From Escherichia coli (lineage in GTDB: Bacteria; Pseudomonadota; Gammaproteobacteria; Enterobacterales; Enterobacteriaceae): DNA of 7,050 bases. Below the pieces are notes generated by a model. That model ran no database searches, was not told where the DNA came from, and saw only the letters and a program-made list of their open reading frames with translations. The stretch is taken from NCBI RefSeq assembly GCF_003334255.1, contig NZ_QOWU01000098.1; one strand, given 5' to 3'. Below are positions 6,751 to 7,050 of this stretch, piece by piece. Every line of letters begins with the position of its first letter. Position 1 is the stretch's first letter. A program made the translations under genes and the position numbers.

Positions 6751-7050
6751 TCAGTTCCTATCCTTCCAGTTGCCCTCCTGCCCCCCCTCCCTGCTGTATA
6801 CCCCGGTACCACAACTCGGGCAGCACTTTTCCCCCTCATAATTTTCGTCACACATCACACAAAACCACTTTCTCACCTTCACCGTATAATCCGGAACCGT
6901 CATACCCTGCAGATGCAAACGACGGGCCTCTTTCTCTGCCGGGTCAAGCCAGGTGCATCGCAGCAGGATTTTCTCAGCGACAGTCATCTGGTCATGTTCA
7001 AACCACGGTGGTTGTCCGTCATTGCCCCGCTGAAGTGTTAACGGGCATCC
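6751..7050 (-). CDS. Partial CDS (C-terminal about 99 codons; N-terminus beyond the window end) for an unknown protein with a C-terminal Cys4 zinc-ribbon motif
   Basis: The minus-strand frame is open from the window edge: GCPLTLQRGNDGQPPWFEHDQMTVAEKILLRCTWLDPAEKEARRLHLQGMTVPDYTVKVRKWFCVMCDENYEGEKCCPSCGTGVYSREGGQEGNWKDRN*, stop at 6751..6753. CVMC...CCPSC is a CxxC-x9-CxxC motif. The internal Met at 6985..6987 lacks a clear RBS, so the gene probably starts outside the window. I do not recognise the family. Confidence 0.45.
   Translation of the reverse strand, partial: GCPLTLQRGNDGQPPWFEHDQMTVAEKILLRCTWLDPAEKEARRLHLQGMTVPDYTVKVRKWFCVMCDENYEGEKCCPSCGTGVYSREGGQEGNWKDRN

Follow-up and report, generated by a model that had tools for sequence, protein, structure and literature searches.

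What does a small protein with a C-terminal zinc ribbon do for the genomes that carry it, when its gene lies beside an insertion sequence (IS) in an accessory region? The question is raised by the last 300 nucleotides, positions 6751 to 7050, of a 7,050-nucleotide stretch of Escherichia coli DNA (RefSeq assembly GCF_003334255.1, contig NZ_QOWU01000098.1), which in its full length we call the window. A preliminary description, made from the sequence alone, had read this segment as the end of a gene running past the window edge, with a CxxC-x9-CxxC zinc ribbon and an IS as its neighbor; it did not recognize the family and considered an origin in a mobile element or a phage plausible. Our analysis places the gene in the backbone of CP4-like genomic islands of Enterobacterales, together with a gene for a protein that has the motifs and the predicted fold of an HUH endonuclease, and we tentatively suggest that the two proteins work together. 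The identity and the genomic context of the zinc-ribbon gene, taken alone, are near certain; the functional proposal is considerably less so.

The gene is read on the minus strand, so that its upstream side lies beyond position 7050, as the preliminary description implied without naming a strand. The frame contains no stop for 99 codons and remains open at the window edge; the 300 nucleotides comprise codons 37-135 and the stop codon at 6751-6753, and the translation ends in RKWFCVMCDENYEGEKCCPSCGTGVYSREGGQEGNWKDRN. The four cysteines form a CVMC-x9-CPSC motif—C100 (6859-6861), C103 (6850-6852), C113 (6820-6822), and C116 (6811-6813), with an additional cysteine at residue 112—and are followed by a short tail containing glycine and glutamate. 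Positions 6700-7050 are 100% identical to the complete genomes of E. coli C and strain HH45, the entire window is 99.8% identical to HH45, and the segment 6480-7050 has matches of 95-100% identity in thousands of complete E. coli genomes. In the genomes that are 100% identical at this place, the frame continues without interruption for 36 codons past the window edge to an ATG, located 108 nucleotides beyond the window and preceded at a distance of 5 nucleotides by AGGAGG. The complete gene thus has 408 nucleotides and encodes 135 amino acids; it is intact, and the part in the window is its distal three-quarters. The N-terminal sequence MRILxCY(L/M)A is common to family members across genera, which confirms the ATG as the start of the 135-residue protein. 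An internal ATG at 6987, which would give a 78-residue open reading frame (ORF), is not the true start; the frame remains open upstream of it as far as the window edge. As an object, the feature is already known: the protein falls in known Pfam families and has the RefSeq entry WP_001221623.1, a "zinc-ribbon domain-containing protein" in the annotation of thousands of genomes.

The Pfam searches were carried out with the full protein from the genomes identical to the window, and they identified two domains, so that the family can be named after all: DUF7828 (PF25165; E value of 7.6e-31, residues 3-88, model positions 2-86 of 87) and Zn_ribbon_11 (PF11682, formerly DUF3279; E value of 6.9e-18, residues ~92-125, model positions 1-33 of 37). 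The N-terminal DUF7828 domain, which resembles the CoiA_N zinc finger, is represented in the window by residues 37-89 only (6892-7050, minus strand), including H55 (6994-6996), C68 (6955-6957), and a conserved PWFEH motif (~6994-7008), whereas two further presumed ligands, C33 and C36, are encoded one to four codons past the window edge. The C-terminal zinc ribbon occupies positions 6784-6882 on the same strand, and a variable tail (EGGQEGNWKDRN; 6754-6783), delimited by low model confidence and by comparison of alleles, completes the protein. Among 1.84 billion cluster representatives searched with a profile, just 260 relatives were found at an E value of 1e-3 or lower. In an alignment of 35 full-length relatives, 24-49% identical to the 135-residue protein, both Pfam domains are present in every sequence and residues C33, C36, F53, H55, C100, C103, C113, and C116 are invariant, while C68 is retained in 34 of the 35. 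Conservation of the four C-terminal cysteines at this level of divergence indicates that the motif is under selection and did not arise by chance. The pattern of conserved ligands implies two presumed zinc-binding sites, an N-terminal Cys2-His-Cys site formed by C33, C36, H55, and C68 and a C-terminal Cys4 ribbon formed by C100, C103, C113, and C116.

An AlphaFold2 model built from the alignment, with a mean predicted local distance difference test score (pLDDT) of 89, has two small beta-rich modules, a connecting helix (residues 73-85), and a floppy tail. In the ribbon, beta-hairpins are modeled at residues 97-100, 105-108, and 122-124; the block-mean pLDDT is 93-94 for residues 101-120 and falls to 73 for residues 121-130 and to 52 for residues 131-135. 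As judged from the domain matches and the model, the protein consists of two predicted zinc modules and has no catalytic domain. The tail also differs between two common alleles of the gene, one of 135 amino acids (that of the window) and the other of 144 amino acids (found in ATCC 25922 and H10407; positions 11954-12388 of locus L003). The two alleles are the same through GTGVYSR and then differ from about position 6775 (~6754-6775 in the window), and the downstream DNA differs as well, so that the conserved module ends within the final codons of the gene.

Other resources added little to the identification of the family. Scans of the protein and of a paralog described below produced no NCBIfam family (the Lar model included) and nothing significant in PHROGs (best E value of 0.03) or PADLOC (best E value of 0.035), and a profile search of the protein against sequences in the PDB produced nothing (best E value of 3.2). 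Many family entries in UniProt bear the name "DNA-directed RNA polymerase, beta subunit/140 kD subunit," and a single one that of "Competence protein"; as applied to the 135-residue protein, these names look like propagated misannotations.

The competence protein CoiA is described with a putative zinc finger of small size at its N terminus (bioRxiv 10.1101/2024.02.06.579203). The N-terminal domain of the zinc-ribbon protein follows the layout of the CoiA_N finger (PF25164), namely a beta-strand, CxxC, approximately 16-18 residues, an aromatic-x-His element, and a distal cysteine, although the matches to the CoiA_N model are weak (E value of 0.34 for the window protein, which is short of Pfam significance, and 1.3e-3 for the best family member; 9 of the 35 members at 0.1 or lower). 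However, CoiA continues into a PD-(D/E)XK nuclease that resolves transformation D-loops, whereas the 135-residue protein ends in a Cys4 ribbon instead. CoiA was therefore rejected as an identity for it: Pfam finds two zinc modules only and no PD-(D/E)XK nuclease domain. With respect to DUF7828 and Zn_ribbon_11, the window protein is a member of the family, and we found no differences from it.

Inspection of the neighbors beyond the window shows where the gene belongs. On its upstream side the gene overlaps by 13 nucleotides the 3' end of a gene for a second zinc-ribbon protein (133 amino acids, WP_000270974.1, "putative zinc ribbon protein"), which is 26-30% identical to the first, depending on the alignment, and has the same two zinc sites. 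The E. coli gene is thus duplicated, and the two paralogs are translationally coupled. A toxin-antitoxin pair was considered for these overlapping genes and rejected, because they are paralogs and many lineages have a single copy. Upstream of the paralog is a gene for a protein of 189 amino acids (WP_000221530.1) annotated as "inovirus Gp2 family." The block of these three genes is covered to at least 80% in 3,241 of 5,426 complete E. coli genomes (~60%); the median copy number is two per genome, and the location is nearly always chromosomal. In ATCC 25922 and H10407 it has variable cargo on one side and, on the other, the conserved backbone of a CP4-like island, which contains genes for Hha, an AlpA-type helix-turn-helix (HTH) protein, a YeeP-type GTPase, Ag43, DUF932, antirestriction, RadC-like, and DUF987 proteins, and CbeA/CbtA. 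The AlpA-type HTH gene of E. coli is found outside the three-gene block, ~1.5-2.5 kb away and on the opposite strand (15806-18111 in locus L002; 13037-15465 in locus L003), and the DNA in between is largely noncoding, with an Hha/YmoA gene in some strains. In CP4-44 of K-12, inspected as a reference, the block is missing, and in E. coli C the YagK gene beside the zinc-ribbon pair is deleted.

Outside E. coli, the surroundings of the gene were examined for nine divergent members of the family; for one of them the contig was too short to be informative. In all eight informative lineages, the zinc-ribbon gene is downstream of, and co-oriented with, genes for a YagK_YfjJ_C ("inovirus Gp2") protein and the excision activator AlpA; it is the last or the last but one gene of this operon-like module and adjoins variable cargo. 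The module is divergent from a backbone of GTPase, antirestriction, DUF932, RadC, and CbeA-CbtA toxin-antitoxin genes. A Klebsiella IncF/IncHI1B plasmid has the order Gp2, AlpA, zinc ribbon, zinc ribbon, and a second "Gp2-type" gene. Family matches in AFDB50 (the AlphaFold database) come from Escherichia, Salmonella, Klebsiella, Serratia, Citrobacter, Enterobacter, Pectobacterium, Budvicia, Cedecea, and Moellerella; the taxonomic range given here is based on these matches and on those from plasmids, where homologs were found in 32 of 72,556 records. A tblastn search of 50,697 phage records returned no homologs. The zinc-ribbon gene is thus a backbone gene of Enterobacterales CP4-like integrative islands, which serve in pathogenicity, fitness, or defense and are related to CP4-44, CP4-57, and the SRL PAI, and of the earlier suggestion of a mobile-element or phage origin, the mobile, accessory setting stands, while an origin in a phage or in the adjacent IS does not.

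The cargo that adjoins the gene elsewhere often encodes defense or resistance (7400-10320 in locus L010; 4566-10215 in L014; 5424-9718 in L019). Examples are SMEK_N/CTD10, MC6, and DUF2326 conflict genes, a type I restriction-modification system with an SMC-like ATPase, and an ars operon; such variety fits the islands as carriers of variable cargo. Divergent from the module, a gene for a protein of 317-409 amino acids recurs with weak matches to RepB-RCR_reg (PF10723; 3524-4477 in L012, 437-1666 in L014, and 227-1456 in L017); such a gene may be one more component of the islands with a link to replication.

The constant neighbor of the zinc-ribbon gene is the Gp2-family gene. The protein that it encodes locally matches Pfam YagK_YfjJ_C (E value of 1.1e-47) and REP_ORF2-G2P (4.7e-5). 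Invariant in 17 diverse YagK/YfjJ members are R31-x-D33, H94-Y-H96 with hydrophobic residues after it, and Y168-x-x-K171, which we take to be motif I, motif II (HUH), and motif III (the catalytic tyrosine) of rolling-circle Rep proteins. An AlphaFold2 model (pLDDT of 88; predicted template modeling score of 0.87) has as its structural neighbors SIRV1 ORF119 (score of 8.3), the nickase domains of parvovirus NS1 (7.8 and 7.4), adeno-associated virus Rep (6.8), Helraiser (6.6), RepB of pMV158 (6.4), and TnpA-REP (6.2). By its conserved residues and its modeled structure, then, the YagK/YfjJ partner has the motifs and the predicted fold of an HUH endonuclease.

The association between the two proteins extends to a natural fusion. 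In Serratia, the 454-residue protein P0198 begins as a zinc-ribbon protein and continues into a YagK-like domain. This domain matches the neighboring YagK of the same genome by BLASTP with an E value of 5e-23 over 330 residues, and both match phrog_7120; compared directly by BLASTP, the fusion and the Gp2-family protein of E. coli gave no significant match. Five more clusters from Serratia species (466-468 amino acids) keep the fusion at full length at 45-52% identity to P0198, and the fusion is therefore not an artifact. In all six Serratia clusters, the fused domain is without the HUH histidines and the catalytic tyrosine. Likewise, the second Gp2-type gene on the Klebsiella plasmid, which is unfused and downstream of the zinc-ribbon pair, encodes a dead version, and the upstream copy is intact. 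Zinc-ribbon proteins of this family are thus repeatedly joined to, or encoded adjacent to, an HUH-fold domain. Dead YagK/YfjJ paralogs (7493-8059 in locus L021; 2797-4161 in locus L005; proteins P0323-P0328) were seen beside an intact HUH copy.

Because of this synteny and the natural fusion, we propose that the zinc-ribbon protein is a non-catalytic accessory subunit or partner of the HUH nickase of the island, a reading to which we give a little less than an even chance. Its zinc modules would bind the HUH-fold protein and possibly also DNA at the nick site. After excision triggered by AlpA, the zinc-ribbon protein would help the HUH enzyme to recognize or process the origin of the island, and the outcome would be rolling-circle replication or mobilization of the excised island. 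The physical interaction, the DNA binding, and the role in replication or transfer are all steps that we infer. A parallel can be drawn with IS91-family and Helitron transposases, which carry an N-terminal zinc finger attached to an HUH enzyme. The proposed logic would be similar by analogy, in that a small cysteine-rich module accompanies an HUH nickase, and Helraiser is among the structural neighbors of the YagK/YfjJ partner. However, the zinc modules described here have no detectable sequence or fold relation to the IS91 and Helitron fingers, they are found on a separate polypeptide, and the domain to which they are fused in Serratia is catalytically dead.

Several observations weigh against the partnership with the nickase. 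YagK/YfjJ genes occur without a zinc-ribbon partner, and the zinc-ribbon family, with 260 members among 1.84 billion cluster representatives and a distribution centered on Enterobacterales, is too small to be a universal cofactor of YagK/YfjJ HUH proteins. AlpA is as often adjacent to the zinc-ribbon gene as is YagK, which leaves room for a role in the control of excision. The family is not basic (median isoelectric point of 7.6, net charge of approximately 0), and this composition does not favor a simple DNA binder. The fold is uninformative: a Foldseek search of the model against AFDB50 returned family members only and gave no functional clue. The literature under PF11682, DUF3279, and zinc_ribbon_11 and under DUF7828 and PF25165 yielded no papers and no experiment on any member. 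In addition, the island in the lineage of the window is decayed, with pseudogenes and IS elements, and the gene may be unused there.

Two described islands bear on the same question. In the SRL island of Shigella flexneri, orf38 (Luck et al. 2001) is tabulated as "no similarity / hypothetical protein" (PMC6980539). This gene is located between a copy of IS66 (orf35-37) and the YfjJ-like orf39, which is followed by Hha (orf40) and Vis/AlpA (orf41) (PMC6980539). The order mirrors that of the ATCC 25922 locus, and we equate orf38 with the zinc-ribbon gene by position only. In Pseudomonas, islands at the transfer-messenger RNA site carry intY, alpA, and an inovirus Gp2-like gene and are subject to transduction by a jumbo phage (bioRxiv 10.1101/2024.08.29.610337). 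They resemble the islands considered here in having an integrase at one end, AlpA and a Gp2-like protein at the other, RadC in the backbone, and defense cargo. However, no zinc-ribbon gene is reported for them, and we saw the family only in Enterobacterales, which again counts against a general role beside the nickase.

A broader version of the proposal is that the YagK/YfjJ HUH protein, AlpA, and one or more Zn_ribbon_11 proteins, sometimes with a dead HUH paralog, constitute a replication or mobilization module of these islands. We put this forward as possible but doubtful. Within such a module, the zinc-ribbon protein would be an adaptor or a specificity subunit needed by the nickase.

What else could the protein do? 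Small proteins with two zinc sites and no catalytic domain are often regulators, and the most viable alternative to a partnership with the nickase is that the zinc-ribbon protein acts with AlpA as a co-regulator of excision or transcription, either by modulating the AlpA-dependent activation of the integrase or by repressing the module. In most lineages other than E. coli, AlpA is encoded immediately upstream of the zinc-ribbon gene, and a description of related elements gives it the role of activating the island integrase (bioRxiv 10.1101/2024.08.29.610337). However, the natural fusion joins the zinc-ribbon protein to a YagK-like domain and not to AlpA, the AlpA-like HTH gene of E. coli is distant and on the opposite strand whereas YagK is adjacent and co-oriented, and no regulator family in Pfam or NCBIfam matches the protein. 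We therefore consider such a role unlikely.

The surroundings of the module suggest another function, that of a stand-alone counter-defense or establishment factor, which would shield the incoming island DNA in the manner of Lar-type restriction alleviation or of KlcA/ArdB antirestriction. The backbone holds antirestriction, DUF932, and RadC genes, which are typical of DNA-entry functions, and the adjoining cargo is often a defense system. Yet the gene is oriented with the YagK/AlpA module and is divergent from the antirestriction block, the lack of any NCBIfam match extends to the Lar model, and the best PADLOC and PHROG matches were insignificant. Counter-defense is, in our estimate, an improbable function for this protein.

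Less probable still is that the gene is a decaying, nonfunctional remnant in the lineage of the window, its ORF intact by chance in a degraded island. Frameshifts, internal stops, and remnants of IS elements do abound in the cargo of the window, and the YagK gene beside the pair is lost from E. coli C. On the other side are an unbroken ORF shared without change by many unrelated strains, metal ligands that are invariant or nearly so across genera, a strong ribosome-binding site, and translational coupling to the paralog; a remnant thus has only a slim chance of being the correct description. Finally, a passenger or accessory gene of the neighboring ISL3 element, suggested by a distance of 187 nucleotides and the same strand, or a gene derived from a phage is effectively refuted, given that the gene is outside the inverted repeats of the element, has other neighbors in other strains, and has its conserved neighbors (YagK and the paralog) on the opposite side, and that the phage records contain no match.

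The IS that the preliminary description had correctly placed beside the gene is an ISL3-family element at positions 4798-6563 on the minus strand, recognized by its inverted repeats and annotated in RefSeq as "ISL3 family transposase, internal stop." Its terminal inverted repeats of 43 nucleotides (4798-4840 and 6521-6563) are 81% complementary, and internal stops divide its transposase into minus-strand ORFs at 6129-6467, 5088-6071, and 4848-5009. A target-site duplication was sought, and none was visible: the flanking 8-mers, AGGCCATA and ATGTGAAG, differ. In other strains, IS66, an ilv fragment, or cargo genes adjoin the same zinc-ribbon gene. Given these different neighbors and the position of the gene outside the IS repeats, the adjacency is incidental, and the ISL3 element is no part of the functional unit of the zinc-ribbon gene. 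The spacer of 187 nucleotides between the end of the IS and the stop codon (6564-6750) has no detected feature. An Rfam scan that covered the window gave no match, and in the identical HH45 locus no terminator-like site on the minus strand was detected past the stop codon. Scans for promoters and terminators and a search for repeats around the module yielded no more than expected from shuffled sequence; the one direct repeat worth noting there is the PWFEH-coding segment common to both paralogs. Opposite the spacer, a plus-strand ORF of 67 codons with a CxxC motif (6529-6732) starts inside the right inverted repeat; it has no annotation support and is probably due to chance.

The remainder of the window is occupied by cargo. 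An operon at positions 392-4436 appears to be in partial decay. Two of its ORFs (392-835 and 880-1605) are the pieces of a split DeoR-HTH/PfkB kinase gene, and the gene for a DMT-family transporter is interrupted (2434-3042 and 3136-3399); a glutamine-amidotransferase-like gene (1619-2377) and a phosphotriesterase-related gene (3402-4436) are intact. In the near-identical HH45, RefSeq annotates several of the cargo genes in this interval as pseudogenes with frameshifts or internal stops. A C-terminal fragment of a gamma-glutamyltransferase gene (4580-4804, minus strand) abuts the left end of the IS and is a partial pseudogene in HH45.

What is new here is a testable link between a zinc-ribbon family and an HUH nickase, the product of the "inovirus Gp2 family" gene. 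The family belongs to the conserved core of islands whose cargo serves virulence, fitness, and defense against phages, and if the two proteins do work together, this would point to a replication or mobilization step in the life of these islands. If the broader proposal is true, the module would explain how the common CP4-like islands of Enterobacterales are amplified or moved after their excision.

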